Source: an uncultured Candidatus Saccharibacteria bacterium
GTDB lineage: Bacteria; Patescibacteriota; Minisyncoccia; Phycocordibacterales; DATDWN01
Assembly (NCBI GenBank): GCA_964551495.1
Contig: CAZKCA010000002.1
Location: 19,648 to 83,647, forward strand
DNA length: 64,000 bases
Direction: 5' to 3'
The position numbers were made by a program, and so were the translations under genes. The notes under the pieces were generated by a model. The model searched no databases and was not told the DNA's origin. It was given only the letters and a program-made list of their open reading frames with translations. Shown one piece after another: positions 1 through 40,663 of this stretch (the first letter of the stretch is position 1; each line of letters opens with the position of its first letter).

Positions 1-795
1 TAGTTTCCAAGCATCCACATTGGCTTGAGCAGCCATCATTCTATCTACTAGTTGTTGAGAACTCATTTCAAGAGAAAATATTCCAACAGGAGTTTTGTGG
101 TTGACTGAAGCTTGTCTGGCAATATCTAAAGCTAATGATGTTTTACCAACAGATGGCCTAGCAGCCAAAATAATTAGATCTGATTTTTGTAAACCTGAAA
201 GTTTTTTATCTATATCTACAAAACCAGTTGGTATTCCTCTCATTCCTTGTCCTTCTGTATGGATTCTATCCAACCTTTCCCAAGCTTCATTTAATTCATC
301 TTTAATAGGAACAAATTTATGAGTTGTGTCGTAGTTTGTAACTTCAAATATTTTTTTCTCGGCACCCTCCAAAAGATCTTCTAGTTCTTTACTTTCATCA
401 TAACCCATCTGACTTATATGATCAGAAGCTTCTATAAGTCTTCGCATCATGTATTTCTTTTGAACTATCTCTGCATAATAAGAAATGTTTGATGCAGAGG
501 GAACGGAATGAATAATTTCGGTTAGATATGTGTTTCCGCCTATTTGATCAATCCATCCTTTTTCGGTTAGTTTGCTAGAAACAGAAAGAAGATCTATTGG
601 TTGGTGTTTGGAAAATAGCTCCATCATAGAATCAAAAATTATTCTATGTTTTTCTGAATAAAAAGAATCTTTAGAAATAATGTCTATAATCTCGTATAGA
701 GATTCTGGTCTGAGCATTATAGATCCCAAAAGTGCCATTTCTGCTTCCAAGTTTTGGGGAGGTATTCTCATTGCTTTTGGTTTTATTTCTGCCAT
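1..795 (-). CDS. dnaB: replicative DNA helicase DnaB, N-terminal 265 codons (gene runs off the window start)
   Basis: Not in the ORF track because no stop falls in the window. My minus-strand translation from ATG 795..793 is MAEIKPKAMRIPPQNLEAEMALLGSIM...GIPTGFVDIDKKLSGLQKSDLIILAARPSVGKTSLALDIARQ. This shows the DnaB N-domain and Walker A motif. Confidence 0.9.
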   Translation of the reverse strand, partial: MAEIKPKAMRIPPQNLEAEMALLGSIMLRPESLYEIIDIISKDSFYSEKHRIIFDSMMELFSKHQPIDLLSVSSKLTEKGWIDQIGGNTYLTEIIHSVPSASNISYYAEIVQKKYMMRRLIEASDHISQMGYDESKELEDLLEGAEKKIFEVTNYDTTHKFVPIKDELNEAWERLDRIHTEGQGMRGIPTGFVDIDKKLSGLQKSDLIILAARPSVGKTSLALDIARQASVNHKTPVGIFSLEMSSQQLVDRMMAAQANVDAWKL

Positions 796-872
796 AAGAA
801 GAATTCTAACATTTTAAAAAGGAGCTGGGCTACTTTACAATGTGTCTATACTGTTTGTAAGTTGGGGAAATC

Positions 873-2279
873 TTATTTTTTGGAGATTTTTGGGCCGTTT
901 TCAGTATCTTTTACAGAAAAACCTAGATTTTCTATCTTTTTTCTTATTTCATCAGATTTTTGCCAATCCTTTTCTGCTCGAGATTTTTCTCTTTCGTCGA
1001 TTAGTTTTTTGACTTCTTCTGGTATTTCTACAATTTCAATTGAATCAAGATTTAAACCAAACACTTTATCAAAATCTAAAATTAGGTGTTTTTTTTGGGA
1101 GTTGTCTAATGAATCATCTTTTATTATATCCCAAGTTAAGGCGAGTGCTTTTGGTGTATCTAAATCATTATTTATAAATTCTTTGAATTTTTCTTTGTAG
1201 GTTTCTGTTTGGTTACTGTCTGTTTCTGGACCAAATTCTAAAACTTTTTCTTTTAGTCTTTCCAGGGCATTTTTAGAAGCTTCTAATGATTGCCAGCTAA
1301 AAAGTAGTGGGGAAGAGTAGTGGGCTGTCAGTATTAAATATCTAAAAGAAAGAGGATCAAAACCTTTGTCTAAAATCGTTTGTAGTCTGATGAAATTTTC
1401 TTCAGATTTGGCCATCTTACCAGACTCCACATTTAAAAAAGCATTGTGTATCCAAAAATTAGCTAAAGGTTTTTCGTTTGCACAAGTTGATTGAGCTATT
1501 TCATTTGTGTGGTGCACTGGTATATGATCTATTCCTCCAGTGTGGACATCTATTGTTTCTCCCAAAATCTCTTTTATCATTGCTGAACATTCTATGTGCC
1601 AACCAGGAAAACCCATCTTGTCACTTCTTGGACTTTTCCATTCTTGAAGTCTGTGTTCTCCAGGTTTTGAAAATTTCCATAATGCAAAATCTTGTATATC
1701 TTCTTTTTCTCCTGTTGGTATAACTCTAGCGAATTCTTCCTCCATATTACTTCTGTCTATACCAAAAAGTTTTTGATATTCTGGAAATTTTGAAGTTTTG
1801 AAATATATTGCGTCATCTGTAATATAAGCGAAATCTTTATCCAGCAGTTTTTCGATCATATTTTTTTGAGATTCTATATGTTCAGTAGCTTTAGGAAAAA
1901 TTATTTTTTCTCTATGTATATTTAATCTATCTAAATCTTCAAAAAATTTTTCTGTATAAAACTTAGTTATCTCTTCTGCATCTTTTCCTTCTTTTTTGGC
2001 TTCTTTTTCTATTTTGTCTTCGCCAAAATCCGCATCTGAAGTTAGATGCCCAACATCAGTTATATTTATTACCTGTTTTACAGAAAAATCATTATACTCA
2101 AACATTCTACGTAGGGTGTCTGCAAAAATATAACTTCTCAGATTTCCTAAGTGTGCATAGTTGTAAACAGTTGGACCACAGTTATACATTAATACTTCTC
2201 CTTCTTTTATAGGTCTAAAAGTTTCTTTTTTGCCAGTAAGACTGTTTTGTAGTTTTATTTCCATTTTATTTACATCCAT
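873..2279 (-). CDS. cysS: cysteine--tRNA ligase
   Basis: 468 aa with [17 protein letters not shown] (HIGH region) and KMAKSEENF (KMSKS). The true start may be M6 (ATG 2264), which would remove the 10-nt overlap with the upstream gene. Confidence 0.95.
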
Positions 2280-3184
2280 TTTTTGTTTTTAGCATATATG
2301 ATGGCTATGACAACAGATAATAACATTATTGTTATAGCCATCCAAAATCCATTTGGATTATTGGCAAAAGGAATATTTGACATACTCATTCCAAAAACTT
2401 GTCCAATAACAGTAAGAGGTAGGATTATAAATCCCATAATAGTTAACTGCTTCATTATTTCATTTTGTTTTGAAGACAAAAGAGAATCATTAGTTTCTCT
2501 TAGTTGTTGCAATATCTCCAGGTTGCTGATTATAGTGCTATGTATTTTTGAATATTCAAGATAAACAGATTCCATATCTTTAACAAATTCTTTACCCAAA
2601 AGATCTTTACCGTTTATTATTATTGACTCAAGGATTTCTTTGTGAAGATCTGTTGTTTTTTTGAAGTCCAAAAGAATTCTGGTTATCTCAGAAATTTTTA
2701 TAACCATTTCTTTTTCTTTGCCTTCAAATATTCTATTAGTGATTTGTTTAGTTGTATCTTCCATGTATAACAACTCATCAAAAATACCCTTGTATAGTGA
2801 TTTAAGCATTGAAACAAAAATGGAGTGACCATTTAGTTCTTCTTCTCTGTCTGTTATCTCTTTTACTTCTAGTTCTTTGGCAAATTTGTGTAGAGGATCT
2901 ATTGTATCGTATCTAGCCGTTATGAGAATATTTTTACCAAGAATAAAATCAATCTCTTGGTCGGGCATATTTTTTTTGTGAGTATGCTTAAACGCTGGGA
3001 AATGAATTATTGTATAAACATAACCATCCCTAAATTCTATTCGTGGTTTTGGGGTTGTAGAAGTTAGTTCTTTTGCAACCAGAGGGTGTACAGAGTATTC
3101 TTCCATTATCTGACTAATTTCTTCTGGTGTTGGATCGTTTAGATCAACCCAGGTCTCTTTTTTATAGGTGTATTTATTTATCAT
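2270..3184 (-). CDS. corA: CorA-family divalent cation transporter-like protein (GMN motif replaced by GMS)
   Basis: 304 aa with a cytoplasmic domain and two C-terminal TM helices. The signature position reads VFGMSMSNIPF where canonical CorA has YGMNF. Confidence 0.75.
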   Translation of the reverse strand: MINKYTYKKETWVDLNDPTPEEISQIMEEYSVHPLVAKELTSTTPKPRIEFRDGYVYTIIHFPAFKHTHKKNMPDQEIDFILGKNILITARYDTIDPLHKFAKELEVKEITDREEELNGHSIFVSMLKSLYKGIFDELLYMEDTTKQITNRIFEGKEKEMVIKISEITRILLDFKKTTDLHKEILESIIINGKDLLGKEFVKDMESVYLEYSKIHSTIISNLEILQQLRETNDSLLSSKQNEIMKQLTIMGFIILPLTVIGQVFGMSMSNIPFANNPNGFWMAITIMLLSVVIAIIYAKNKKWM

Positions 3185-3227
3185 ATAAGATAATTATATA
3201 AATCTTTATAAATAAACACAAAATTAT

Positions 3228-29968: not shown

Positions 29969-31233
29969 TGAATAAATATGTACTTACATTTATAATTTTA
30001 ATAATATTTTTTGGATTCAGGTATTCTTTTGCTGATACTGTTTCTGAATTACAAAATAAAATAGAAGATAGATCAAAACAAATACAAGAAATAGAAGAGG
30101 AAATAAAACAATACACCGAGGAGGTAAATAGAATAAATAAACAATCTAAAACACTATCTAACGCAATAAAAAGTTTAGATACTACTCAAAAGAAAATAAG
30201 TGCTGATTTAAACTTAACCACTCAAAAAATAAACCGAGCAGAATTAACCATAGAACAACTTAACAACGAAATATATAATACTGGAATCAAACTATCTAAA
30301 AATAGAGAAATTGTAGCTAATACAATAAGAACAATAAACCAAGCTGATGAACTAAGTTTAATTTCGCTTGTTTTTTCAGGAAAAAGCATAACTGAAGTTT
30401 GGGAAGATTTAGATTCAATTAAAAAACTTCAATATGAAGTAAGAAACCAATCTAACGAGTTAACCATGATAAAAAAAGAAATGGAAGACAAAAATTTAAG
30501 TTTGGTTAATCAAAAAAGAGAACTGACAAATTATCAAGGTGATCTTGTTGGCCAAAGACAAGTAATTGAGGAGAATAAAAAAGAAAAAAGTAACTTATTG
30601 AATCAGACAAAAAATCAGGAACAAGCATACCGAACACTAATTGAAGAAAAAGAAAGAGAAAAGGATCAATTTGAAAAAGAATTATTTGAATATGAGTCTC
30701 AATTAAAGATATTTATAGACCCAACAGGATACCCTAGTCCAAGAAATGGAATTTTATCTTGGCCGTTAGACAATGTCTACATAACTCAATCTTTTGGTAG
30801 AACAGTTGCTGCTCAAAGACTTTATGTTTCTGGATCACACAACGGAGTAGATTTTAGAGCTAGTATTGGAACAAAGGTTAAATCTGTTTTAGATGGAGTA
30901 GTAGTTGGCACAGGAAATACAGATGCTTATCGCGGATGCTACTCTTTCGGTAAATGGGTAATGGTAAAACATCCTAATGGTCTTTCTACTATATATGCAC
31001 ACCTCTCTGTTATATCAGTATCTCCTGGGGTAGAAGTTAGAACTGGAGATACAATAGGTTTTACTGGTAATACAGGATACTCTACTGGCCCACACCTACA
31101 CCTAGGACTTTATGCTACCCAAGGAGTAAGAATTGAAAAACATGCAACCAGTAGGGGATGTAAGGAGGCAACAATGCCACTGGCAGATATAAAAGCATAC
31201 TTAGATCCTCTACCTTATTTACCTGCACTATAA
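29968..31233 (+). CDS. M23 family peptidoglycan metalloendopeptidase with N-terminal coiled coil
   Basis: Signal/TM, a long coiled-coil region, then HNGVDF...GNTGYSTGPHLHLG (LytM/M23 motifs). Confidence 0.88.
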   Translation: MNKYVLTFIILIIFFGFRYSFADTVSELQNKIEDRSKQIQEIEEEIKQYTEEVNRINKQSKTLSNAIKSLDTTQKKISADLNLTTQKINRAELTIEQLNNEIYNTGIKLSKNREIVANTIRTINQADELSLISLVFSGKSITEVWEDLDSIKKLQYEVRNQSNELTMIKKEMEDKNLSLVNQKRELTNYQGDLVGQRQVIEENKKEKSNLLNQTKNQEQAYRTLIEEKEREKDQFEKELFEYESQLKIFIDPTGYPSPRNGILSWPLDNVYITQSFGRTVAAQRLYVSGSHNGVDFRASIGTKVKSVLDGVVVGTGNTDAYRGCYSFGKWVMVKHPNGLSTIYAHLSVISVSPGVEVRTGDTIGFTGNTGYSTGPHLHLGLYATQGVRIEKHATSRGCKEATMPLADIKAYLDPLPYLPAL

Positions 31234-31266
31234 AACCCTCCCTACTTTTTCAAGTGGGAGGGTTTT
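31232..31266. terminator. bidirectional hairpin terminator
   Basis: AAAACCCTCCC...GGGAGGGTTTT. Confidence 0.7.
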
Positions 31267-31363
31267 GTTCTTTATCATCTTTTAATGCTACGTAGTATAA
31301 AGCAAGAACCGTTATAAAAAGACAAAATAGAGCTGTTAACACTAAGGCCATATCAGGATTCAT
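31250..31363 (-). CDS. possible 37-aa single-TM peptide, translationally coupled (ATGA overlap) to the upstream 147-aa ORF
   Basis: My translation is MNPDMALVLTALFCLFITVLALYYVALKDDKEQNPPT. The ATG (31363..31361) overlaps the TGA (31362..31360) of the preceding gene. It is not in the ORF track because it is under 60 aa. Confidence 0.3.
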   Translation of the reverse strand: MNPDMALVLTALFCLFITVLALYYVALKDDKEQNPPT

Positions 31364-31803
31364 TTTCTCACCTTCAATAAAAAGTCGAGAGCGTCCATTA
31401 CGGCCTTGAATTTTTCAAGTGAACAAGACCTTACAAAATCACCCTGTTCTATATTTTCAAAAAAAGATAAAACTTTACTTATAGAATACAGATGATTATC
31501 ATAAAAACCTTCTTTGTTCCTAATGTTCATATTCTTATGAATACTTTTTAGTTTTTTATGATAGATTTTAATTAGTCTAACAAGACATTTATATTCTTCT
31601 CCTCCGTGGATAAAATAAGGTTTATTGCCTATAATAAAATCCACCTCTGCTTCATTTCTAATAAACAAGATTAGAAGCTTTATCTTTTTTAGATCTTCCT
31701 TAGATTCTGTTATCTTTTTCAGCGGATCATAATTAGAATCTCTAATCATTACTAACATTAAAAGACAGAGAACTAAAACAAAGAAAACCACAATGAAGAA
31801 CAT
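31360..31803 (-). CDS. hypothetical membrane-anchored protein
   Basis: 147 aa with an N-terminal TM. AGGAGG SD lies 7 nt before the ATG. No family was recognised. Confidence 0.5.
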   Translation of the reverse strand: MFFIVVFFVLVLCLLMLVMIRDSNYDPLKKITESKEDLKKIKLLILFIRNEAEVDFIIGNKPYFIHGGEEYKCLVRLIKIYHKKLKSIHKNMNIRNKEGFYDNHLYSISKVLSFFENIEQGDFVRSCSLEKFKAVMDALDFLLKVRK

Positions 31804-31924
31804 CTCAAACCCTCCTAAGCGAAAGATTATAATAAAAAAGCAATTAAGTCAATTTCATTATTTTATCTTTTTTAATAAAAATTGTTATAATATAAACATA
31901 TTTAATTAGTTAAAAAATAAAAAT

Positions 31925-32179
31925 ATGAAAAGAAATGTTGGTTCTTTAGATAGAGCAATTAGAATAGTTTTGGGACTACTTTTTATATGGTGGAGCACAA
32001 GCCTTTCAGGACTTCTCTCTGGGCTAACGCTTATTATAGGAACTATATTGTTTATTACAGGAGTAGTAGGAAGATGTTTGATGTATAAACTACTAAAAAT
32101 GAAAACTAATAAATGTGAACACTGCGGTAAAGGAGAATGTGACTGCAATAATATCCAAACTAATACAAACAACCAATAA
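31925..32179 (+). CDS. DUF2892 (YgaP-like) small membrane protein with Cys-rich tail
   Basis: MKRNVGSLDRAIRIVLGLLFIWW...GRCLMYKLL matches the DUF2892 pattern. The C-terminus is CEHCGKGECDC. Confidence 0.7.
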   Translation: MKRNVGSLDRAIRIVLGLLFIWWSTSLSGLLSGLTLIIGTILFITGVVGRCLMYKLLKMKTNKCEHCGKGECDCNNIQTNTNNQ

Positions 32180-32204
32180 TAAAATAAGTAAGATGCCCAA
32201 TAAA

Positions 32205-32241
32205 AAATAAACACAGCATATTTTTGCTGTGTTTATTTTTT
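32205..32241 (+). terminator. rho-independent terminator
   Basis: AAATAAACACAGCA-tatttt-TGCTGTGTTTATTT followed by a T-run. Confidence 0.75.
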
Positions 32242-32602
32242 GATACCTAAAATAAAGGGTAGGGGACTTCCCTATTGGGAATAGAAAATTAGTCACTAAA
32301 TCTTTTTATGAGATAAAAGATATTTGACGTATTAGGGGAATAGATAAATATACACGATAAACTAATAATCATAATAAAAATAAACAAATTACATTGAACA
32401 AATTGTTTAAAAGATCAATAAATTATTTTAATAGATTTAAAGAACTTTCTCTCTTATATAGAGTGACCAAAGATATATTGTGCGACGTATAATGTATTTA
32501 TTCCCCTCTGTAAATAAAGACCTTAAATGCAAACTTGAAAATAAAAAATAAATGGAAAAACTCCCTACCCTGTGGTAGTATGGTCCTCGGAGGAATGGAG
32601 AA

Positions 32603-32665
32603 ATGCAGAACAACTACTTTGATCCCCTGGAATTTGAAAAAGGCGGCCGACTTATATCAAATTAA
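32603..32665 (+). CDS. possible 20-aa upstream ORF MQNNYFDPLEFEKGGRLISN, coupled (TAATG) to the next ORF
   Basis: GGAGG (32589-32593) lies 9 nt upstream of ATG 32603. The stop TAA at 32663-32665 overlaps ATG 32665. Confidence 0.25.
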   Translation: MQNNYFDPLEFEKGGRLISN

Positions 32666-33027
32666 TGATTGTTATAATTATTATTTCAATAATACCCCTA
32701 ATGATCTTCGTACAATCTTCTATGAAGTCACTTAGGCAAGACCAGAACAAAGTAAGTTGGATAATGGAAACTAAATTAGAACAAATTGGGCCCTACCACT
32801 ACGTAGGATATGCCAAAGAAAACGGAAAAGAAGGTATCCGAGTTGTTACAATCAACTTAGTAGATTGTCCTAAAGAGTTTAAGTTTCGATTTCCTAAAAA
32901 AGGAGATTTTGTCCGTGTTGAACTTTACAAACAAGAAGAAATAGCAGAGACAAAATCTGGAGACCTTATACTCACCCTTCCTAAAGATTTTATAAAAATG
33001 GGAATACTAGATCCTCAATGTAAATGA
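32665..33027 (+). CDS. hypothetical protein with N-terminal hydrophobic anchor
   Basis: 120 aa (MIVIIIISIIPLMIFVQSS...). No family was recognised. A terminator follows. Confidence 0.5.
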   Translation: MIVIIIISIIPLMIFVQSSMKSLRQDQNKVSWIMETKLEQIGPYHYVGYAKENGKEGIRVVTINLVDCPKEFKFRFPKKGDFVRVELYKQEEIAETKSGDLILTLPKDFIKMGILDPQCK

Positions 33028-33037
33028 CACCAAACTC

Positions 33038-33059
33038 AAAGCCCCTAATCGGGGCTTTT
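33038..33059 (+). terminator. rho-independent terminator
   Basis: AAAGCCCC-taatc-GGGGCTTT. Confidence 0.75.
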
Positions 33060-33101
33060 CTTTATTCAAAAAATGTGATAATTTTTTGTTTGGAGGCGCC
33101 G

Positions 33102-33200
33102 GTGACATTAAAAGAATTGGCGATCGGTTGTCTGACTGGTCTTGCTGTTTTTTCAATAATGACAGCGGCTAGCATAATGTTTTTTCTGAAATGGAGGTGA
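33102..33200 (+). CDS. candidate 32-aa hydrophobic peptide (GTG start) MTLKELAIGCLTGLAVFSIMTAASIMFFLKWR
   Basis: GGAGG (33092-33096) lies 5 nt before GTG 33102. An extended -10 TGtGATAAT is at 33074-33082. The stop TGA overlaps the SD region of the next peptide. Confidence 0.4.
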   Translation: MTLKELAIGCLTGLAVFSIMTAASIMFFLKWR

Positions 33201-33205
33201 CAGGC

Positions 33206-33274
33206 ATGTTTTCCAACGAACAAACCGTTTATGCACTCATTGTCCTTGCCTGGGCAATAACATTTCTTTTCTAA
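33206..33274 (+). CDS. candidate 22-aa hydrophobic peptide MFSNEQTVYALIVLAWAITFLF
   Basis: GGAGG (33193-33197) lies 8 nt before ATG 33206. A terminator follows 9 nt after the stop. Confidence 0.4.
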   Translation: MFSNEQTVYALIVLAWAITFLF

Positions 33275-33282
33275 CCCACAAC

Positions 33283-33304
33283 AAAAGCCCCTTTCGGGGC
33301 TTTT
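33283..33304. terminator. bidirectional terminator
   Basis: AAAAGCCCC-tttc-GGGGCTTTT. Confidence 0.75.
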
Positions 33305-33314
33305 ATCGTGAATA

Positions 33315-33755
33315 TTATTTATTCATAGCAAGAGCGGACTCATATTTACCCCAACAAGCTTTGGATGAAATCCAAGGCTGAGTTCCCTGCTTTTCATACA
33401 ATTTTCTTGCATAAGCAGTGTTACCTTCTATGGAATAAATATTATAATTCTCTTTTTCTGCTGTCTCTAAGTGGTAATACTCGTTTATTTGCATTACACC
33501 CACGTCAGCATTATTTACTTTTCCTCTATGAACTTCTCCTTTGGAGTCTAGATGTCTAAATGTTGATTCACATTTAGCAATCTCAATCATAATCGGAATA
33601 TCTGAGAAGTACTGTCTAATATACTGTTCAGTACTCATTAATTTTTCAACGTCCTTCTTTGAAACTTCTCTCACTAACTGAGGCTTTTGTTCTGGTATTT
33701 CGGTTACAGTAACTGGACTGTTAATACCTGATATACTTCCCAAAGCCATAAACAA
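33315..33755 (-). CDS. lysozyme-like / lytic transglycosylase (SLT-type) domain protein
   Basis: IAKCESTFRHLD...NNADVGVMQINEYYH shows the catalytic E-S plus the GxMQI(N) pattern. A signal-peptide-like stretch (LILQFTVVSLFMALGSISG) extends upstream of the first canonical start, so the true start is uncertain. Confidence 0.7.
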   Translation of the reverse strand: MFMALGSISGINSPVTVTEIPEQKPQLVREVSKKDVEKLMSTEQYIRQYFSDIPIMIEIAKCESTFRHLDSKGEVHRGKVNNADVGVMQINEYYHLETAEKENYNIYSIEGNTAYARKLYEKQGTQPWISSKACWGKYESALAMNK

Positions 33756-33966
33756 ACTAACTACTGTAAATTGTAAAATAAGACTTCTGTTAAGTTATAA
33801 TTCTGAAATTTACTCGGAGAAATGAAAACTCAGTAAATTACTGAGTATGTATATATTATAGCACCTTATGATTTATTTGTCAAAGCAAAACACACAAATT
33901 GGACCTTGAAAAGGGTTATAAAACCTATATTTTAAGCCATTTATTATCTTTTTTTATATAAACAAT

Positions 33967-33990
33967 AAAACTTGCTTTTTAGCAAGTTTT
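33967..33990 (-). terminator. terminator downstream of the giant surface protein gene
   Basis: AAAACTTGCT-tttt-AGCAAGTTTT. Confidence 0.7.
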
Positions 33991-34017
33991 ATAAGTTATG
34001 CACTAATTCCCTACCCT

Positions 34018-37000
34018 TTAGAACTCCCTGTATATCAAAGGCTTGAGAGAAAATACAGCTGTGACAGTTTTAGGTGAATTTATTGTCAAAACACAGTTTC
34101 CAGTACCAGAACAATCCCCTTGCCAACCAACAAATCTCCAAGCGGAAGAATCTGGATAAGGAGTTAAGGTAACAACAGTACCAGAAGCATAATTTCTAGA
34201 ACAATTTGATCCACAGTCTATCAATGTATCAACACTTTTAACAGTTCCACCATAAGTTTTGAAAACTTCCAAGTTATGAGTTGTATTAGGAGTAATAGTT
34301 ACAGAGTCACTATCCCCTCCTTCAGTATTTGAACAGGTTAAAGTATAAGTTGTATTGTTTATTATTCCATTTATATCCTCACTACCTCCCAATACAGATT
34401 TTGATCCACTCCAACCACCAGATGCTGTACAACTAGTTGGATTTCCCGTTGTAGACCAAGAAATAGTTGTGGATAGAGGAGCATTACCTGTTGTTGGATT
34501 ACCACTTATTGTTACAGTAGGAACTGTTCCTTGTTTTTGCCAAGTCAATCCATACCCAGCCCCACCTCCATTTTCATACATTTCATAAACAAGAGTTCTC
34601 TGGCCAGCAGATAATACAACAGGAGAACCTGAGGTGCTTCTTATTGCATGGTCAGACCAATCATTTACCAAATATCCACTATCTGGAACACCATCGTTGT
34701 TATCATCAAAATATGCACGAGAACCATCATCTGACGCCGTAGTAAATACATATGTTCCAGCTGTAAAATTGAATCTTCCTTTCCATCTTACAGAATAAGT
34801 ATCTGTCAAAGTTCCTGGACCAGCAGATCCCCAGTCAACATTCGGCAGAGGTGAAGCTGTATTTGGTACAGGAGAAGCTAGGACAGGTCCAGTTATTGGA
34901 TTTATAGCAGCTAAAGTATTAAATGCAGTTCCTGTATAAGCACAACCATACATTTGATTTGTCCCTACTGTGGCAGGGTTACAAGAACCACCTGAGGCAG
35001 CTCCGACAGTAACTGAAGCATACCTTGTTACAGATGCTGGAGAAGCGTCAGCTCTATCACACCTTATACCAAAAGTATAATTTGAGCTTGGAGATACATC
35101 TGTATAACCACCACTTACACTCTTTGATCCGCTCCAACCAAACCCAGTTCCATTATACGCATAACAAGAAGTTGGGTTTCCCGTTGTAGACCATGTCAAT
35201 CTTGAACTATTTCCGGTTGTTATAGAAGAAGGTGTTGCTGTAAATGTTAATCCTATAGTAGGAGAAGATATAACAGGTACGGATACGGAAGTCGCACAAC
35301 CAGCATCTTTTCTTATTTCTATAGTATAAGTTCCTGTTCCAGAAAGAGGATAAACGTTTATTTGATTTGGTCCTCTATAAGTTGTAGGAACATTAAAACC
35401 ACTAGGACTATAAGTTATAGAGGCATTGTCTATTTCTGATTGTGTCCCGAAATTACCATAAATTATAAGGTAGCCGTTCATGTAAACTTCTGGAGTGTAC
35501 ACACCTGTACTAGCATTATAACCGTTATATCCGCTGACACTAAAGTTACAAGCATTAGGATTTACTTTGACAGCAACAGAATCCACAACATCAGCAGTCC
35601 CAGATTTACTACAAATTATATTGTAAGTATAAGTTCCAGCGGTTAAACTAGATCTTAATTCAGAACCACTAGGTACTGATTTGGATCCAGACCAATAACC
35701 AGAAGCTGTACAACTAGATGGACTCCCAGTTGTAGACCAACTAAGTGTTGTTGAGTTTGTAGGTAGGGTCATATTTGTTCTAGAAGCAGAAAGGTCCACA
35801 GTTATAGGAGAAGTTGCCCCAACTGTTACTGTGGCATTTGCAGAAACAGGAGAAAGACCTGCTTTGCTACATGTAATACTGTATGTATATGTCCCTGCGC
35901 TAGGAATAGAAACACCCTGACTTCCGCCGGATGTAGACCTAGACCCAGTCCATGCTCCACTAGCTGTACAACTATCTGGAGCACCTGTTGTTGTCCAAGT
36001 AAGTGTAGAAGAGTTTGAAGGCCATGTCATAGATGTTGGGCTAGCAGACAAAGTCACTCCTATAGAAGCTGGAGCAGATAGATTTACTGTAAGAGTAGCC
36101 AGCGTTCCTCCAGCTGTTGTATCTCCTCTTCTTTGCAAATAAAATACAGTTCCATTGGAAACATTGGACACAGCAACACTTCTACTACCTGAAAGATGCT
36201 GAGCCTCTAGTGTTCCAGAAGTACTTCCCCTTCTTACATCGTGATCACAATTTACATCAGAATATATAGTTGTAGCACCAGTTGCATTTGAAGTAACTAT
36301 TGGATTTGGGTTAGCATAAAAATTTGTAACAGAACAAGTTGGCTGAGTAACAACAACAGTGGCTTCTTTGTAATAATCCGCAACACCAGTCTTTGTACAA
36401 GTTATTCCATATGTATAAGTTCCAACAGTCAGACTAGATCTTACCTCTGAACCACCCGCTGTACTTTTTGCCCCACTCCAAGCTCCACTAGCTGTACAAC
36501 TTTCAGGATTTCCTGTTGTAGACCAAGTAAGTGTTGTAGAGTTTGTGGGTAGTGTCATAGATGTTGGAGTAGCTGAAAAATCTACAGTAATAGGTTCTGG
36601 TGGGACAGGACCAACTCTTGTAGCCATTGTCACTGGTCCAACGTCTCCATCGTTTGCCAAAGACATACCAATAGAAACAATAACTGTTCCAGCAGGGGCT
36701 CTTAGAACTCTTTTTAATGAGCTAATTGATGGATATCCATGTAACCTACAACTCCCTATATAAGGATCCTCCCAGCCTTTATATCCTGCGGTGTTATTAT
36801 TCCCAATATCAACAAGACTTGCATATTCTTGATAATAACAAGGTTTTTCTGGTGAATCATCTATATATGGACTAGCACTACCCATACCTCCAGAAGTAGG
36901 CCTTCCGGATCTTGTTCCCCATGTCCAACCAACAGCATATCTTCCTGTTTGATATGGAGCTCCTGGGTTTGCCGGGTCATTTCCTGGACCATTTGTACAA

Positions 37001-37239
37001 GTTATACTTGTAGATCCTATAGAATTAAAATTTATAGTTCCATCTGGATTCACTGGGGCGTATAAAATAGACAAAGTACAAGCCTTGTCGTCTGAACCAT
37101 ATCCTATAGCAGTTAGCCCACTACCCTCGGGAACAGTCATAAGTGCTCCAGAGTCATAATAATTTTCGGCATTGACTGATGATAGCCCCGCAAAAAATAA
37201 AATTGATGCTAATAAACAAATTTTTAATAATCTTTTCAT
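34018..37239 (-). CDS. 1073-aa secreted surface protein: unknown N-domain, five ~80-aa Ig-like repeats, PA14 domain, C-terminal InlB B-repeat-like domain
   Basis: Signal peptide MKRLLKICLLASILFFAGLSSVNA. The repeats carry a conserved TLTWSTTGNP-SCTASG-WSG-KS...GTYTY-I-C pattern at aa 217-298, 393-474, 478-559, 661-745 and 906-983. PA14 lies at aa ~760-903 (YSVRWKGRFNFTAGTYVFTTASDDGSRAYFDDNNDG...GYGLTWQ). The C-terminus reads GTVVTLTPYPDSSAWRFVGWQGDCSGTGNCVLTINSPKTVTAVF. Confidence 0.85.
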   Translation of the reverse strand: MKRLLKICLLASILFFAGLSSVNAENYYDSGALMTVPEGSGLTAIGYGSDDKACTLSILYAPVNPDGTINFNSIGSTSITCTNGPGNDPANPGAPYQTGRYAVGWTWGTRSGRPTSGGMGSASPYIDDSPEKPCYYQEYASLVDIGNNNTAGYKGWEDPYIGSCRLHGYPSISSLKRVLRAPAGTVIVSIGMSLANDGDVGPVTMATRVGPVPPEPITVDFSATPTSMTLPTNSTTLTWSTTGNPESCTASGAWSGAKSTAGGSEVRSSLTVGTYTYGITCTKTGVADYYKEATVVVTQPTCSVTNFYANPNPIVTSNATGATTIYSDVNCDHDVRRGSTSGTLEAQHLSGSRSVAVSNVSNGTVFYLQRRGDTTAGGTLATLTVNLSAPASIGVTLSASPTSMTWPSNSSTLTWTTTGAPDSCTASGAWTGSRSTSGGSQGVSIPSAGTYTYSITCSKAGLSPVSANATVTVGATSPITVDLSASRTNMTLPTNSTTLSWSTTGSPSSCTASGYWSGSKSVPSGSELRSSLTAGTYTYNIICSKSGTADVVDSVAVKVNPNACNFSVSGYNGYNASTGVYTPEVYMNGYLIIYGNFGTQSEIDNASITYSPSGFNVPTTYRGPNQINVYPLSGTGTYTIEIRKDAGCATSVSVPVISSPTIGLTFTATPSSITTGNSSRLTWSTTGNPTSCYAYNGTGFGWSGSKSVSGGYTDVSPSSNYTFGIRCDRADASPASVTRYASVTVGAASGGSCNPATVGTNQMYGCAYTGTAFNTLAAINPITGPVLASPVPNTASPLPNVDWGSAGPGTLTDTYSVRWKGRFNFTAGTYVFTTASDDGSRAYFDDNNDGVPDSGYLVNDWSDHAIRSTSGSPVVLSAGQRTLVYEMYENGGGAGYGLTWQKQGTVPTVTISGNPTTGNAPLSTTISWSTTGNPTSCTASGGWSGSKSVLGGSEDINGIINNTTYTLTCSNTEGGDSDSVTITPNTTHNLEVFKTYGGTVKSVDTLIDCGSNCSRNYASGTVVTLTPYPDSSAWRFVGWQGDCSGTGNCVLTINSPKTVTAVFSLKPLIYREF

Positions 37240-37240
37240 G

Positions 37241-37783
37241 TTATTTTATTGTTAAGGATATTGTTACATAAGAAAGACCTCCGTCTATAGAAGAAACAGT
37301 GATAGAAAAACGATCGTTTTCTTTTGAAGCAGATAGGAAATCATACTTTGATTCATTGACTTCTTCTAAGAGATAATCTTCTCTAGAAAAAAAATCTTTA
37401 AAAGAACCTACTATTTGATTTCTGGATAAAATAGAATAATAGACATAATTTACAAAAGTCACTTCTCTCTCTGTCCCAGCAAAATTTGTTACTGCCTTGC
37501 TCAGCTCTATATCTACTGGGTTTGTTTCTACAGGCAAACCAAGTAGATACCCAGTAGGAGCTTTGTCTTTTTCTTCAAATAATACAGTTTCTTGTTCTGC
37601 CTTTAGTCGAGCATTTTCTTCTGCCATTTCTGGGTCAGAAACATAAACCTGCTCTCCTCCTACTACTGGCTTATTGTTAAAGTAGTATTTAACAAAGAAA
37701 AACCCTCCTACCAACACAACTAAAAGAACTAATAAAATTATTAAATTACTTTTTTTAAAAGTATTATTTGTAGTTTCGTCCAT
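37241..37783 (-). CDS. hypothetical membrane-anchored protein, same operon as the giant surface protein (1-nt gap)
   Basis: 180 aa with an N-terminal TM. No family was recognised. Confidence 0.55.
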   Translation of the reverse strand: MDETTNNTFKKSNLIILLVLLVVLVGGFFFVKYYFNNKPVVGGEQVYVSDPEMAEENARLKAEQETVLFEEKDKAPTGYLLGLPVETNPVDIELSKAVTNFAGTEREVTFVNYVYYSILSRNQIVGSFKDFFSREDYLLEEVNESKYDFLSASKENDRFSITVSSIDGGLSYVTISLTIK

Positions 37784-37886
37784 AATAAAATTATATATTG
37801 TTTCTAGCTAGTTAGCCAATTATAGCTATGTAAAACTGTGTAAAACTGAAGACCACAAAAATACAAAAAGTAAACCTGTGGAAAAC

Positions 37887-37915
37887 TTGACTTTTTTTAA
37901 AAAATAGTCTATGGT
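37887..37915 (+). promoter_or_regulatory. putative promoter of the beta-barrel gene
   Basis: TTGACT (37887-37892), 17 nt, TATGGT (37910-37915). Confidence 0.5.
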
Positions 37916-37964
37916 GGAGTCAGACAGCCTTGCTGTTCTATCTTTTAGATTCGGAGGCTTCGAG

Positions 37965-38612
37965 GTGAAAAAGTTTGTCTCGCTCTTTGCAATCCTTTTG
38001 GCGATCGTACTCGCGACCGCCTCCATGAACGCTCAAGAAAACCGCAAGGTTGCCTTTTATGCTATCGGTGCTGGTAGCATCGATAGTGGATCTTCTTCCA
38101 GCAACATCAGCGGACTTGGCACCCAAGTGGGTGCTGGTGTCGACATCAATCCTGAGGGCTTTGGCCTTGGACTACGGTTTACCAACGGCTCCCCTGTGGA
38201 CCAAAGCTTCAGTCGAGGCTTTGATAACCTTCCTCCGTGGTATACGGGGCAAGTTCCTCAAGCCAACTATAGGACCGAAAACAGAAGCCGAGTCTTCTCA
38301 GCAATGTTCCAGAAAGGGTTCGGCAACCAAAAAGCCAAACTTATTCTGGGTGCTGGACCAGGAGTTCTGCTAACCCGTTCAAACATCACGGAAAGTTACA
38401 CCGGTGTACCGGCAAACTTTCCTTTTGGAGACACTTCCACAAGAAGTTTCTCTAACAAGCAGAACACTTTTGTCGGCACCTTCGGCGCCACAATTGTCGT
38501 CCGAGGAGGAAAAAACTTCGACTTTCGGTTCGGGGTTCAATATCTCCGAGGATTTACCGGAGAAAAACAGTCTTTCATTATGCCCGTTGGCGGTGCCGGC
38601 GTTGGCTTCTAG
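37965..38612 (+). CDS. outer-membrane-protein-like 8-strand beta-barrel protein (OmpX/OmpW/PF13505-like pattern), strongly GC-elevated
   Basis: GGAGG lies 7 nt before GTG 37965. Signal peptide VKKFVSLFAILLAIVLATASMNAQE. Amphipathic strands alternate (KVAFYAIGAG, GTQVGAGVDI, GLGLRFTNG, RVFSAMFQKGF, KLILGAGPGVLL, FVGTFGATIVVR, FDFRFGVQYLRG, SFIMPVGGAGVGF). The terminal Phe matches the OMP C-terminal signature. Confidence 0.6.
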   Translation: MKKFVSLFAILLAIVLATASMNAQENRKVAFYAIGAGSIDSGSSSSNISGLGTQVGAGVDINPEGFGLGLRFTNGSPVDQSFSRGFDNLPPWYTGQVPQANYRTENRSRVFSAMFQKGFGNQKAKLILGAGPGVLLTRSNITESYTGVPANFPFGDTSTRSFSNKQNTFVGTFGATIVVRGGKNFDFRFGVQYLRGFTGEKQSFIMPVGGAGVGF

Positions 38613-38640
38613 TTCTTCCCGCCCCTTGGGGCGGACAAAG

Positions 38641-38691
38641 AAATCCCATAATTTGGGCTTCCACGTGGAAGCTCCAGATTATGGGATTTTT
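38641..38691 (+). terminator. two-tier hairpin terminator after the beta-barrel gene
   Basis: AAATCCCATAAT...ATTATGGGATTT (12 bp) encloses the 16-nt palindrome GCTTCCACGTGGAAGC and is followed by a T-run. Additional hairpins lie at 38619-38634 and 38704-38724. Confidence 0.7.
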
Positions 38692-38731
38692 CTATTACAC
38701 TAAGTGTCAAGGGGCATCCTTGACATATTTT

Positions 38732-39211
38732 TTACAAAAACAAAAGAATAGCCAAAGGAACCAAAGTTAACCAGAACATATAATCATTTGAGAAAATGTT
38801 ATCCACACTACTTCCAAAGTTGTAAAAAGAATCTAGTGACACAACAGAATAGCTAAAGACTAATACCAAGACAACTAAAGCAAGTGAGTAAGCTATGATT
38901 TTCAGATATTTTGACCCGCCATATCCAACAGAAGAAACATACCTGCCAATTATTATATCTAGTGGTATTAGGAATATTAGAAATAAGACCACTTTATTTA
39001 TAAGCAAAGCTACACCCCCATCCATAAACAAAAGTTTATCTGTAAAAGGAAAACTACTAAAAAGATAAAGTGCTGGATAGAAAGAAAGAATAAGAGAAAT
39101 CATTCTGTTCTTTCCAAAGTAAAGAGCGTAAGAAAAAAATATAATGAATAAAACTAATAAAGCGATTATATCAGTTGAAACAAAAGAACCATTTAAAAGA
39201 TTTGAGAACAT
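38732..39211 (-). CDS. polytopic membrane protein (possibly CvpA-like), hypothetical
   Basis: 159 aa with ~4 TM helices. Confidence 0.5.
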   Translation of the reverse strand: MFSNLLNGSFVSTDIIALLVLFIIFFSYALYFGKNRMISLILSFYPALYLFSSFPFTDKLLFMDGGVALLINKVVLFLIFLIPLDIIIGRYVSSVGYGGSKYLKIIAYSLALVVLVLVFSYSVVSLDSFYNFGSSVDNIFSNDYMFWLTLVPLAILLFL

Positions 39212-39252
39212 ATAAATATATTATACAGACAAAACAAAAAGAAAAAAGGAGG

Positions 39253-40335
39253 TTATACCCCCTCTTTTCTTAACTCCTCTACTATTTTCTTTGCACTTTT
39301 GGAAAGTTTGTTTGGAAGAACAATCTTTATATTTACCAATATGTCCCCTCGTCTGTTTTTGTCATAAGGTACACCTTTATTTTTTATCTTCAAGATTTCT
39401 CCGTGAGAAATACCCTCTGGAATTTTTAGAGAAATATCACCATCTAGTGTTTTGATACTATACTCTGCACCAAGCAAAGCATCTGAAAGTTTTACACCCA
39501 AATCCATCACAAGATTTTCTCCAACTTTCTTGAAAGTAGAATGTTTTTTGACATAAATCTTTATATACAAGTCCCCTGGTTGTCCATGAGATATTGCCTC
39601 TCCTGCACCAGAAAGACGGATCATCTCTCCATTTTCTATACCAGCTGGAATATGGACTTTAATTTCACTTTCTTTTTTGTTTATACCTGCACCTTTACAT
39701 ACAGAACACTTAGTCTTTGGAACCTTCCCAGATCCTCCACAAGTAGAACAAGTGACAATATTTTCAAAACTACCAAAGAAAGATTGTTTTACTTCACGTA
39801 TGCTTCCATTTCCATTACAAGTAGTACAAGTAACCATCTCAGAACCTTTTTCTGCTCCTGTACCAGAACAATGACCACATTCAGAAGCTTTGTTTAGAAG
39901 AATTTTTCTTTCAACTCCAAAAATAGATTCTTCAAAAGAAACTTCTAGGTCAATAGAAATATCTCTTCCTCTTTTTACTTTCTGTCTTCTTCCGCCACCA
40001 AACACATCTCCGAATATGTCTCCTAGATCAAACTCAAAGCCTCCCGCACTTCCCTGATTGAACCCAGAAAAGTCAAAACCTCCAAATCCACCGAAGCCTT
40101 GGCCAGCCCCTGGACCTCCTCCGCCAGCAAAAGTCCTACCATAAGCATCGTATTCTGCTCTTTTCTTATCATCAGACAGGACAGAATAAGCCTCATTTAC
40201 TTCTTTGAATTTAGCATCATCTCCATCTTTTTTATCCGGATGATACTTATGAGCCAAAGTTCTGAAGGCTTTTTTTATTTCATCTTTGGAAGCCTTTTTT
40301 GGGACTCCCAATACTTCATAGTAATCTTTTGACAT
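39253..40335 (-). CDS. dnaJ: molecular chaperone DnaJ
   Basis: J-domain with HPD (KYHPDKK), G/F-rich linker and four CxxCxGxG zinc motifs. Confidence 0.97.
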
Positions 40336-40414: not shown

Positions 40415-40663
40415 ATGTTCACAATCATTTTGGATAGAAATAGAACCATTGAATTTGGTGAATTTGAATCTATAGAAAAGGCACAGGAACTTTTAAAAGA
40501 TAAGGGGTGGGAACAAATCAATCTTAATAACTTTATTGTAAGAACACGATATCGTTCTTATTCTGCTCAGATCATAAGAGCAAACGAAAGGAAACCTCAC
40601 ACAGACTTGCCAACCAGATCAAACTATAGTTCAAATCCCCACGACAGTGAAATGATAATTTGA
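40415..40663 (+). CDS. hypothetical 82-aa protein
   Basis: It has its own promoter-like signal, a GGAGG SD and a downstream hairpin (AGCCACGGT...ACCGCTGGCT followed by a T-run). No family was recognised. Confidence 0.5.
   Translation: MFTIILDRNRTIEFGEFESIEKAQELLKDKGWEQINLNNFIVRTRYRSYSAQIIRANERKPHTDLPTRSNYSSNPHDSEMII

Follow-up and report, generated by a model that had tools for sequence, protein, structure and literature searches.

Gene content of the interval

The subject of this report is a 7.5-kb interval (positions 31,234 to 38,731) in a 64-kb stretch of contig CAZKCA010000002.1, derived from an uncultured member of the candidate phyla radiation (CPR, or Patescibacteria); the whole stretch, which has a GC content of ~32%, is hereafter called the window. 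The interval lies between a block of cell-wall genes that includes gltX and the gene of an M23 peptidase, and a block that comprises dnaJ, dnaK and ribosomal genes. It had been read in a first-pass annotation as an accessory host-interaction island, a reading that is partly supported by the present analysis. The interval is probably not an acquired island, however, but the replication-terminus zone of a small Paceibacterota chromosome, and its organizing feature, which that annotation had not seen, is a replication terminus with a dif-like site inside a long spacer. As a whole the region is an ordinary terminus-proximal plasticity zone, in which gene flux is restricted to ~1.5–2 kb of the 7.5 kb, in three small places.

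For comparison, loci of ±10 kb (~21 kb each) were taken from related genomes; 80 loci anchored on GltX were probed by tblastn with the proteins of the window, and 85 related loci were fetched overall, those around homologs of the outer-membrane-protein (OMP)-like gene being drawn from independent Logan and JGI assemblies (L081–L085 and L206). The nearest relatives of the window's GltX, at 57–69% identity, are found only in Patescibacteria metagenome-assembled genomes (MAGs) labelled Paceibacterota, Parcubacteria or Nomurabacteria.

Every open reading frame (ORF) of the first-pass annotation was recovered in the ORF listing of the window, and the interval is indeed rich in secreted or membrane proteins (Table 1). 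Ten proteins encoded in or beside it, a set that leaves out p37, p20 and the 22-aa ORF, were scanned against Pfam and NCBIfam. Pfam assigned three of them, the M23 peptidase on the left flank, a DUF2892 protein and a PA14 protein, and the other scanned proteins matched no family in either collection. Further descriptive elements of the annotation also hold. The spacers are unusually long: against a window-wide median of 40 bp between genes, the interval contains gaps of 450, 287 and 262 bp, which rank among the eight longest. Many units have their own terminators (16 terminator-like sites, compared with 5.6 ± 2.9 in shuffled sequences), a three-fold enrichment that is not seen for promoter-like sites (26, compared with 26.8). 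The GC content is patchy, being ~0.40 over the giant PA14 gene, ~0.50 over 37900–38650 and ~0.32 elsewhere. Finally, no tRNA, tmRNA or Rfam family was detected across the whole 64 kb, and no integrase or transposase domain among the scanned proteins, which also included nine of the ten window ORFs of 281–351 aa (Pfam).

Table 1. Features of the interval and its borders, in window coordinates.
Feature	Position	Strand	Remarks
Terminator hairpin after the M23 gene	31241–31258		M23 ORF ends at 31233; + strand genes stop here; from the terminator scan
p37	31250–31363	−	Overlaps the stop of p147
p147	31360–31803	−	No Pfam family
DUF2892/YgaP-like small membrane protein	31925–32179	+	Cys-rich tail; PF11127, E = 2.8e-18, 66.3 bits (threshold 25.3)
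dif-like site, GAGTGACCAAA-GATATA-TTGTGCGACGT	32461–32488	+	Degenerate left arm, AT-rich centre, invariant right arm
Variable slot right of the dif-like site	32489–33314		Alignments diverge just past the conserved block
p20 (20-aa ORF)	32604–32666		Coupled via TAATGA to p120
p120	32665–33027		
p58	33024–33200		Doubtful
Terminator	33038–33058		
22-aa hydrophobic ORF	33206–33274		
Bidirectional terminator	33283–33306		
SLT/lysozyme-like secreted protein	33315–33755	−	Invariant C-E-S ... G-V-M-Q-I-N motif; class-wide core gene
Sigma-70-type promoter, TTGACA-17-TATAAT with TG	33855–33883	−	Perfect, 12/12 match; in the 262-bp spacer upstream of the SLT-like gene
Giant secreted surface protein, 1073 aa	34018–37239	−	PA14 (PF07691), 28.5 bits (threshold 24), residues 793–847, partial profile match
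p180	37241–37783	−	N-terminal transmembrane anchor and ~140-aa domain; one base upstream of the giant gene; translationally coupled; no family
Promoter of the OMP-like gene, TTGACT-17-TATGGT	37887–37915	+	Conserved in the window, L206, L001, L081 and L085
Hypervariable GC-rich cassette (OMP-like)	37925–38612	+	5′ untranslated region with small hairpin; coding sequence 37965–38612, 215 aa
Two terminator hairpins closing the cassette	38619–38692	+	CCGCCCC/GGGGCGG, then a long AAATCCCATAAT...ATTATGGGATTT stem
mem159, polytopic membrane protein	38732–39211	−	Family-level core gene at the right edge, next to dnaJ

Convergence of the replication arms and the dif-like site

The cumulative GC skew of the window climbs from ~3 kb, peaks at 31–33 kb and drops to the window end, and almost all genes lie on the + strand to the left of this peak and on the − strand to its right. 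Positive skew together with co-oriented genes that point inward on both sides is the signature of converging replication arms; the arm carrying the cell-wall/gltX/M23 block (+) and the arm carrying the dnaK/dnaJ/ribosomal block (−) would thus meet in this interval. Around the meeting point would stand the envelope genes conserved in the lineage, namely those encoding the SLT/lysozyme-like enzyme, the DUF2892 protein, mem159, and the unit of p180 and the giant protein. A local reversal occurs at the left end of the window (1–3200), where negative skew and − strand genes (a 468-aa ORF and CorA) precede the long + run.

The 423-bp spacer at 32180–32602 contains, at 32.47 kb and hence within the skew maximum, the dif-like site with its core ATATATTGTGCGAC. 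When the spacer between the DUF2892 and SLT-like genes was aligned with three relatives, a conserved block stood out amid otherwise unalignable DNA, and the window holds one match to the site at up to 3 mismatches. With at most one mismatch, the 14-mer ATATATTGTGCGAC is single-copy in 56 sources, i.e., 55 of the 85 fetched loci (counted per ~21-kb locus) and the window; the exact 15-mer GATATATTGTGCGAC is present in 25 of the 85, and one of the 56 core matches, inside murG in L055, is a chance hit. The core usually lies 0.3–2 kb past the M23 gene, even where GltX is only ~57–63% identical to that of the window. A frequency matrix built from 54 sites gives AAA[G/C]ATATATTGTGCGAC[A/G][C/T] at nearly full information, and to the left of the core it contains a weakly conserved tGTCGC-like stretch, a partial reverse complement of the right arm. 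Nearly all of the sites are intergenic (52/56), and most lie between convergent large ORFs (47/56). Over the 8 kb flanking the site, the mean GC skew is +0.093 to the left and −0.069 to the right, and 44 of 48 loci show this change of sign from positive to negative.

These properties make the site a likely dif-type Xer dimer-resolution site at the replication terminus, on which a Xer-type tyrosine recombinase would act to resolve chromosome dimers. The known dif sites are 28-bp pairs of palindromic motifs that track the shift point of the GC skew, and phages integrate through dif-like sequences (Kono et al., PMC3025954). As in the XerCD/dif, XerS/difSL, XerH/difH and archaeal XerA/dif systems, the present site is short, non-coding, and located at the skew shift between convergent replichores; it has arms that appear inverted around an AT-rich centre, one arm being far better conserved than the other, it is conserved over a large clade, and copies of it occur on filamentous-phage-like elements. 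No published account of a dif site in Patescibacteria emerged from a literature search.

Several points weigh against this assignment and against the placement of the terminus. The left arm is only weakly palindromic: complementarity at 6 of 8 positions is reached in only 18 of 53 loci, and these 18 fall in two registers, which imply centres of 6 or 7 bp. A left arm so degenerate, with a register that shifts by 1 nt between genomes, sets the site apart from the known Xer/dif systems. In the window's own site the complementarity of the arms is 5/9, whereas the best palindromic copies, on viral contigs, reach 8/9 with a 6-bp centre (counted by eye). Compared by eye with the dif sequences of E. 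coli and B. subtilis, the site agrees only in the TT-TG at the start of the conserved arm and in the AT-rich centre. Such slight likeness to canonical dif is expected for a distant phylum, and membership therefore rests on architecture and position. No Xer gene was found in the window, in which nine of the ten ORFs of 281–351 aa were scanned; no search was made outside it. Moreover, GC skew correlates with gene orientation, so that the lines of evidence are not fully independent, and the view extends over 64 kb here and ±10 kb in the relatives, stretches to which the single-copy counts apply.

It is unlikely that the palindrome is instead a transcription-factor operator, a replication-fork barrier or a promoter element of the downstream slot. 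The dissimilarity to canonical dif, the degenerate left arm and the lack of a Xer gene in the window would suit such a role, as would the longer conserved block that runs to the right of the site in this genus and the TATAAT that directly follows it in the window. However, operators and promoters travel with their gene, whereas the DNA after this site varies between genomes. One arm and the centre do not vary even among genomes in which GltX shares only ~57–69% identity with that of the window, the site coincides with the skew flip in the loci counted above, and full palindromes are carried by an inovirus-like contig, between its genes, and by a phage contig that encodes a terminase. If confirmed as a dif site, the sequence would be a simple landmark for the terminus of a large uncultured CPR class, and an aid for closing and orienting MAGs, for reading replication-rate indices, and for finding phages and elements that exploit Xer.

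Viral contigs carrying the site

A scan of IMG/VR with the 14-mer gave 124 matches on 120 contigs, many of them by chance; the full palindrome, i.e., including the inverted left arm, is present in 27 of the 124, where ~1.5 would be expected by chance. One group consists of contigs of 4–5 kb and 30% GC that carry the full palindromic site in intergenic DNA (L107, L119, L129, L138, L169 and L196). Among them, the 4.6-kb L129 (IMG/VR UViG_3300008278_000079, positions 1179–1263) has a second, inverted partial arm ~50 bp upstream of the site and a gene for an assembly ATPase of the Zot type (phrog_197; PF05707, 23 bits, cut-off 20.3); no integrase domain was detected in its four ORFs of at least 80 aa. 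By analogy, L129 resembles the filamentous phages that use the host Xer system and integrate at dif. The site-bearing contigs of 30% GC look like inoviruses of Patescibacteria and may integrate via the Xer system of their host. On a bolder reading, the ATATATTGTGCGAC site would be the first defined dif of Patescibacteria, exploited by CPR-infecting inoviruses.

A second viral group, of 38–49% GC, carries the near-perfect palindrome GTCGTACAA-CATATA-TTGTGCGAC (L144, L091, L135, L143, L156, L178, L188, L198 and L202, all from IMG/VR). Its member L144 encodes a large terminase and an HNH endonuclease and so represents a tailed phage.

The slot to the right of the site in the window recalls the integrative mobile elements exploiting Xer (IMEX), as exemplified by inoviruses of the CTX-phi type, in that variable content starts within ~40 bp of the site and that small Zot-encoding contigs carry the site with no integrase found. 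Unlike in IMEX, no second (pseudo-)site bounds the slot, the slot ORFs match no fetched viral contig, and the difference between the relatives L081 and L082 at this place is a plain 1095-bp indel. An IMEX remnant in the window's slot was therefore rejected, given the lack of a second dif-like copy and of any match to p120 or p58 among the phage records and the 120 viral contigs.

Conserved gene order and the island explanation

The full gene order comprises the M23 peptidase, a ~165-aa transmembrane (TM) protein, the DUF2892 protein, the variable slot, the SLT-like protein, the giant PA14 protein, its ~180-aa TM partner, the OMP-like protein (+), mem159, dnaJ and dnaK. It recurs in L001 (GltX 69% identical), L081–L085 and L206, that is, in every genus-level relative sampled. 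Beyond the genus the arrangement loosens in parts. L004 (GltX 61% identical) keeps the backbone of M23, SLT-like gene, mem159, dnaJ and dnaK and is missing the trio of giant protein, partner and OMP-like gene; in L005, mem159 and the SLT-like gene are inverted beside M23; and in L002 and L007, the SLT-like gene is followed by tandem pairs of a TM partner and a giant protein with immunoglobulin (Ig)-like repeats. An SLT-like gene after M23 is present in 8 relatives, including L002, L005, L007, L015, L032 and L051.

The composition agrees with this conservation. Among genes of 80 aa or more, GC at third codon positions (GC3) is 0.18–0.29, the OMP-like gene excepted, where it is 0.51 compared with 0.17–0.29 for its neighbours. 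The elevated GC to which the first-pass annotation had pointed is real, but over the giant gene it is driven by amino-acid content: a GC of 0.40 arises there because second-position GC (GC2) is 0.60 in a protein rich in Thr, Ser, Gly, Ala and Pro, and GC3 is 0.18, so that the composition is native. The comparison of synteny proposed in that annotation, and that of codon-position composition, therefore turned out against a mosaic of independently acquired units, the order being largely conserved in relatives and the OMP-like gene alone being non-native. What can be upheld is that a few pieces, namely p20, p120, p58 and p147, are strain-specific, having no counterpart in any fetched locus, and that the composition of the OMP-like gene is of a foreign type. 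Likewise, the statement that none of the genes is housekeeping was too strong, since the SLT-like protein is kept across the class.

An accessory host-interaction island of independently acquired secreted or membrane effectors is accordingly improbable, and synteny has already largely refuted it. Such an island would account for the many small units with their own terminators, the long spacers, the strain-specific p20, p120, p58 and p147, the foreign composition of the OMP-like gene and the absence of the trio from L004. The gene order is nevertheless identical in all genus-level relatives, which derive from independent assemblies; the SLT-like protein and mem159 are kept far beyond the genus, GC3 is native in all genes but one, and the long spacer is accounted for by a conserved site and not by junction scars. 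Of the usual marks of a genomic island, neither a tRNA gene, nor an integrase or transposase domain in the proteins scanned, nor a second dif-like copy was found. The region is not absent or displaced in close relatives, its order being the same in L001, L081–L085 and L206, and atypical composition does not run through it, the OMP-like gene alone deviating at GC3 (the doubtful p58 ORF has 0.39). Between two core blocks, a run of non-housekeeping genes with long spacers and uneven GC can be no more than the mark of a terminus. It should be added, as a point against the terminus zone as a conserved unit, that the trio of giant protein, p180 and OMP-like gene is limited to one genus-level clade and is thus "core" for that clade only.

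The variable slots

The first place of gene flux in the proposed terminus zone would be the ~0.8-kb slot directly to the right of the dif-like site, which holds ORFans in the window and a methyltransferase pair in a relative. No match to p20, p120 or p58 was found in any fetched locus, nor to p120 in the phage records, and the 22-aa ORF likewise has no counterpart in the fetched loci. The two tandem hydrophobic peptides of the first-pass annotation exist as ORFs; p58, however, starts across the terminator hairpin at 33038–33058 and is probably not a gene. In L081 the slot encodes an N6_N4 methyltransferase and a 176-aa ORF, possibly a small restriction-modification pair. L082, which is 99.7% identical to L081 on the left and 96% on the right, differs from it by a 1095-bp indel (L081:3508–4602; L082:4602/4603) that starts 37 bp to the right of the core and removes the N6_N4 DNA methyltransferase gene together with the N-terminal half of the adjacent 176-aa ORF.

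Two near-identical terminator hairpins of the form AAAGCCCC-loop-GGGGCTTT (33038–33058 and 33283–33306) bracket a 245-bp segment of the slot with the hydrophobic peptide ORFs. L001 has a single copy of this hairpin, and the doubling may be a trace of the insertion of the p120 segment. On the other side of the dif-like site, just after the DUF2892 terminator, a hairpin-forming block AGGG[T/C]AGGGGACTTCCCT (window 32255–32275) is kept in the window, L001, L081 and L082.

The second place of flux would be the position of p147 and p37, a slot conserved in position and not in sequence. The p147 protein has an N-terminal hydrophobic stretch and gave no tblastn match in any fetched locus. Homology to the 165-aa TM protein that stands at the same place in L001 and L081 was considered and rejected, the two sharing no significant similarity (E = 0.6).

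The OMP-like barrel and the replacement of its alleles

The OMP-like gene appears to be the third place of flux, over its transcribed part. This part is a GC-rich cassette encoding an OmpA/OmpW-type barrel, with a conserved promoter on one side and conserved terminators on the other. The first-pass annotation was right that a gene for an OMP-like protein lies here; its start, however, is the GTG at 37965 (ATG in relatives) and not 37911. The product is modelled as an 8-stranded β-barrel of the OmpA/OmpW type with a signal peptide (MKKFVSLFAILLAIVLATASMNA, followed by QE) and a C-terminus ...GAGVGF-COOH; the divergent L206 allele ends in Gln. The AlphaFold2 (AF2) model is all-β, with a mean predicted local distance difference test score (pLDDT) of 67.5, and Foldseek matches it to OmpA, Ail, OmpX and OprF at E = 1e-6 to 1e-5. 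The window's protein has no match to PF13505, and its match to PagL (16.9 bits) is below the 23-bit cut-off; its relatives P0003 and P0004 have weak precomputed matches to PF13505. Variation is concentrated in residues 37–53, 86–98 and 147–159, the loops at one end of the barrel, whereas the turns at 62–65, 121–123 and 181–184 are conserved, the classical pattern of exposed loops and periplasmic turns; variable loops at one barrel end are as expected under diversifying selection on an exposed surface. The protein thus has in common with the known small 8-stranded barrels (the N-domain of OmpA, OmpX/Ail, OmpW and OprF; PF13505) a signal peptide, ~190 mature residues, a C-terminal Phe, and long variable loops at one end with short conserved turns at the other. 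It differs from them in that its host lineage is thought to be without an outer membrane, in that GC3 in the window is 2.5 times that of the genome, and in the tiny size of its family.

Of this family, 5.8 billion proteins searched by word index yielded five homologs, and 1.84 billion representatives searched exhaustively with a hidden Markov model yielded four at E ≤ 0.001. All lineage members whose neighbourhood was examined (five of seven) occupy the same locus. A further candidate, P0008 (1241 aa), was set aside, as its match to the OMP profile is a short repeated motif and not a barrel. The sole member from outside the lineage, P0007, lies on a 1-kb contig of 53% GC beside a gene fragment whose product has the Solibacter C-terminal domain (TIGR03437, 34.8 bits, cut-off 29.05). 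The neighbour points to a diderm source in the Acidobacteria for this one outside homolog.

Within the lineage, whole alleles of the gene have been replaced. Between L206 and the window, identity is 98.0% in dnaJ, 95.7% in mem159 (100% at the protein level) and 90.7% over the giant gene's N-terminus, p180 and the OMP promoter; over the mature-coding region of the OMP-like gene, blastn finds no similarity and the proteins are 36% identical. The left breakpoint lies at ~37925, a few bases from the expected transcript start, and the right breakpoint is the stop codon. The window allele is nearer (54–59%) to those of the more distant L001, L081 and L085 than to that of the near-conspecific L206. 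The pair L001 and L081 has a third-position identity of 0.46 in the OMP-like gene and of 0.72–0.81 in its neighbours, which implies that the alleles have been exchanged or are older than the species split.

It appears that whole alleles are exchanged through homologous recombination in the conserved flanks. Neisserial porins and other antigenically variable surface loci undergo allelic replacement through recombination in conserved flanks. The present locus is similar in that flanks 91–98% identical enclose a coding part that is 36% identical at the protein level, in that the breakpoints fall at the transcript start and the stop codon, and in that the relationships of the alleles disagree with those of the flanks. 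It differs from the neisserial loci in its bearer, an uncultured CPR bacterium with a diderm-type barrel, in the lack of silent cassettes in the 64 kb, and in the two deep allele classes that were sampled. Two other sources of diversity were rejected. Against a diversity-generating retroelement, the whole mature region differs and not a short A-biased tract, and no reverse-transcriptase domain was found in the scanned proteins; against gene conversion from silent cassettes, the window is without any other GC-rich segment or match to the OMP-like gene. A scan of metagenomes with a 22-mer from the OMP promoter returned the L001 contig only, and no further alleles.

The frame around the alleles is well kept. 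In the promoter, the −35 hexamer TTGACT is invariant and the −10 region varies slightly, while the surrounding non-coding DNA varies; the terminators of the cassette are identical in the window and L206 and show compensatory changes in L001, L081 and L085. A small hairpin stands at the 5′ end of the transcript (window 37923–37937; L206 ~2073–2090). Its structure, and not its sequence, is kept between the allele classes (GACAGC/GCTGT compared with GAACAA/TTGTTC), and it may stabilize the mRNA.

The composition of the gene (GC at codon positions 1, 2 and 3 of 0.53, 0.47 and 0.51, with GC3 at 0.44–0.58 in the six alleles examined, compared with ~0.2 for the genomes) would be explained by transfer from a diderm donor. 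It is also possible, if somewhat doubtful, that the gene is native and evolves very fast, its GC being kept high by selection (e.g., for mRNA stability or expression) in an old balanced polymorphism with no import from a diderm. All seven alleles found in the lineage (six loci examined) occupy one locus, where a conserved AT-rich promoter precedes them and conserved terminators follow, and the 5′ hairpin keeps its structure across the allele classes. In addition, GC3 stays at 0.44–0.58 though synonymous-site identity has fallen to 0.38–0.47, which a simple decay of foreign DNA does not predict. In favour of import, the only family member outside the lineage is the one on the 53% GC contig beside the TIGR03437 gene, the fold is that of a diderm outer-membrane barrel, and elsewhere in the window GC3 is raised in no gene, dnaK and those of the ribosomal region included. 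Patescibacteria have been proposed to lack an outer membrane (PMC12102498).

The barrel may be located in the outer membrane of a host, in an unrecognized outer layer, or self-inserted in the cell's own membrane; a literature search found nothing specific on OMP-type barrels in CPR. A bolder reading, to which we assign little probability, is that the CPR cell keeps, beside its adhesin operon, a strongly promoted barrel gene of diderm (Acidobacteria-like) origin and exports the product into the outer membrane of its host, or into an unrecognized outer layer that it has itself, where the barrel would serve for attachment or as a pore, and that, jointly, swaps of whole alleles follow the specificity of hosts or phages and thereby keep the gene GC-rich and hypervariable. 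A diderm-type barrel in a presumed monoderm episymbiont, with a foreign composition kept across species, could bear on the contact of CPR with their hosts and on the identity of these hosts.

The last alternative is that the 0.7 kb of high GC encodes a structured RNA or arose when host DNA was misjoined in assembly. It can already be dismissed in spite of a GC of ~0.5 spread equally over the three codon positions and of several open frames: no Rfam or tRNA match was found, codon positions are conserved in the order 2 > 1 > 3 (identities of 0.62, 0.71 and 0.38 at positions 1, 2 and 3 between the window and L001) with indels in multiples of three, as in a protein gene, the GGAGG Shine-Dalgarno sequence, signal peptide and start codon (GTG or ATG) are conserved, and the same junctions recur in at least 6 independent assemblies.

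Other GC-rich genes were observed near the same terminus-proximal position, after genes for TM partners and giant proteins, at L007:16887–17620 (−) and L005:15952–19066. Their GC3 is 0.53–0.58 in genomes of 39–41% GC in which most neighbouring ORFs have a GC3 of 0.24–0.43, and the L007 protein is unrelated to the OMP-like barrel. These two cases suggest that the terminus flank may tolerate foreign DNA generally.

Conserved envelope genes

The giant protein has a signal peptide, a unique N-terminal domain of ~200 aa, and five Ig-like repeats of ~80 aa, each with a conserved Cys pair; the PA14 domain is inserted between repeats 4 and 5, and the C-terminal domain resembles InlB B-repeats (PF18998, Flg_new_2, in the ortholog). 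Orthologs 65–67% identical occur in L001 and L081, and related proteins follow the SLT-like gene in L002 and L007. From this architecture, the protein may be a glycan-binding surface adhesin, and a role in host interaction, as the first-pass annotation had in mind, is plausible for it. With known PA14-containing repeat adhesins it shares the signal peptide, the tandem Ig-like repeats with an inserted PA14 domain and the composition rich in Thr, Ser and Gly. Against such a role it must be noted that the assignment would rest on one PA14 match and the repeat architecture. Unlike those adhesins, the giant protein has no recognizable cell-wall or membrane anchor of its own and is always paired with the gene of a small TM-anchored partner.

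The partner p180 may serve as a membrane anchor or assembly factor for the giant protein. A small protein with an N-terminal TM segment always precedes the giant gene, 1–5 nt upstream, and the pair is repeated in L002 and L007. Orthologs of p180 share 39–44% identity across the genus, and that of L206 reaches 87%. In the comparison of the window with L001, the identity is 39% for p180, 67% for the co-transcribed giant protein and 79% for dnaJ, so that p180 changes far more rapidly than its cargo.

For the SLT-like protein, 646 homologs were found; the top 120, from Paceibacterota/Zambryskibacteria, share 61% identity or more and are all unnamed. The E63-S64 pair of the protein is invariant. 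In common with family-1 lytic transglycosylases and c-type lysozymes it has a helix followed by an invariant Glu-Ser, further on the motif G-[VL]-M-Q-[IV]-N, and conserved Cys residues; c-type lysozymes in the PDB match it at E = 0.1–0.3, aligned on ES...QIN. Two results count against the assignment. All profile matches are sub-threshold (SLT_3 in 9 of 10 members, best E = 0.0056; SLT in 8 of 10, best E = 0.0043), and the AF2 model, built with 32 homologs, has a pLDDT of 46.5 and is unusable. The protein thus departs from those enzymes in matching below the curated thresholds and in forming an unnamed, highly conserved Paceibacterota family of its own. Its class-wide conservation beside the M23 peptidase suggests routine peptidoglycan remodelling and not an effector role.

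Of the remaining envelope genes, that for the DUF2892 protein is conserved in the genus, with orthologs 54–55% identical at the same position in L001, L081 and L082. The mem159 protein is 81–84% identical in the genus and 51–54% in L004 and L005, and its gene is always beside dnaJ or M23.

Variation was also noted beyond the right edge of the interval. In L206 a 477-bp insertion with a 65-aa ORF (L206:3393–3869) lies between mem159 and dnaJ, where the gap in the window is 26 bp (39228–39253). Between dnaJ and dnaK, the window contains an 82-aa ORF against the local strand bias (40415–40663, +), and at this spot in L081–L085 gene callers place a + strand gene of 97–156 aa.

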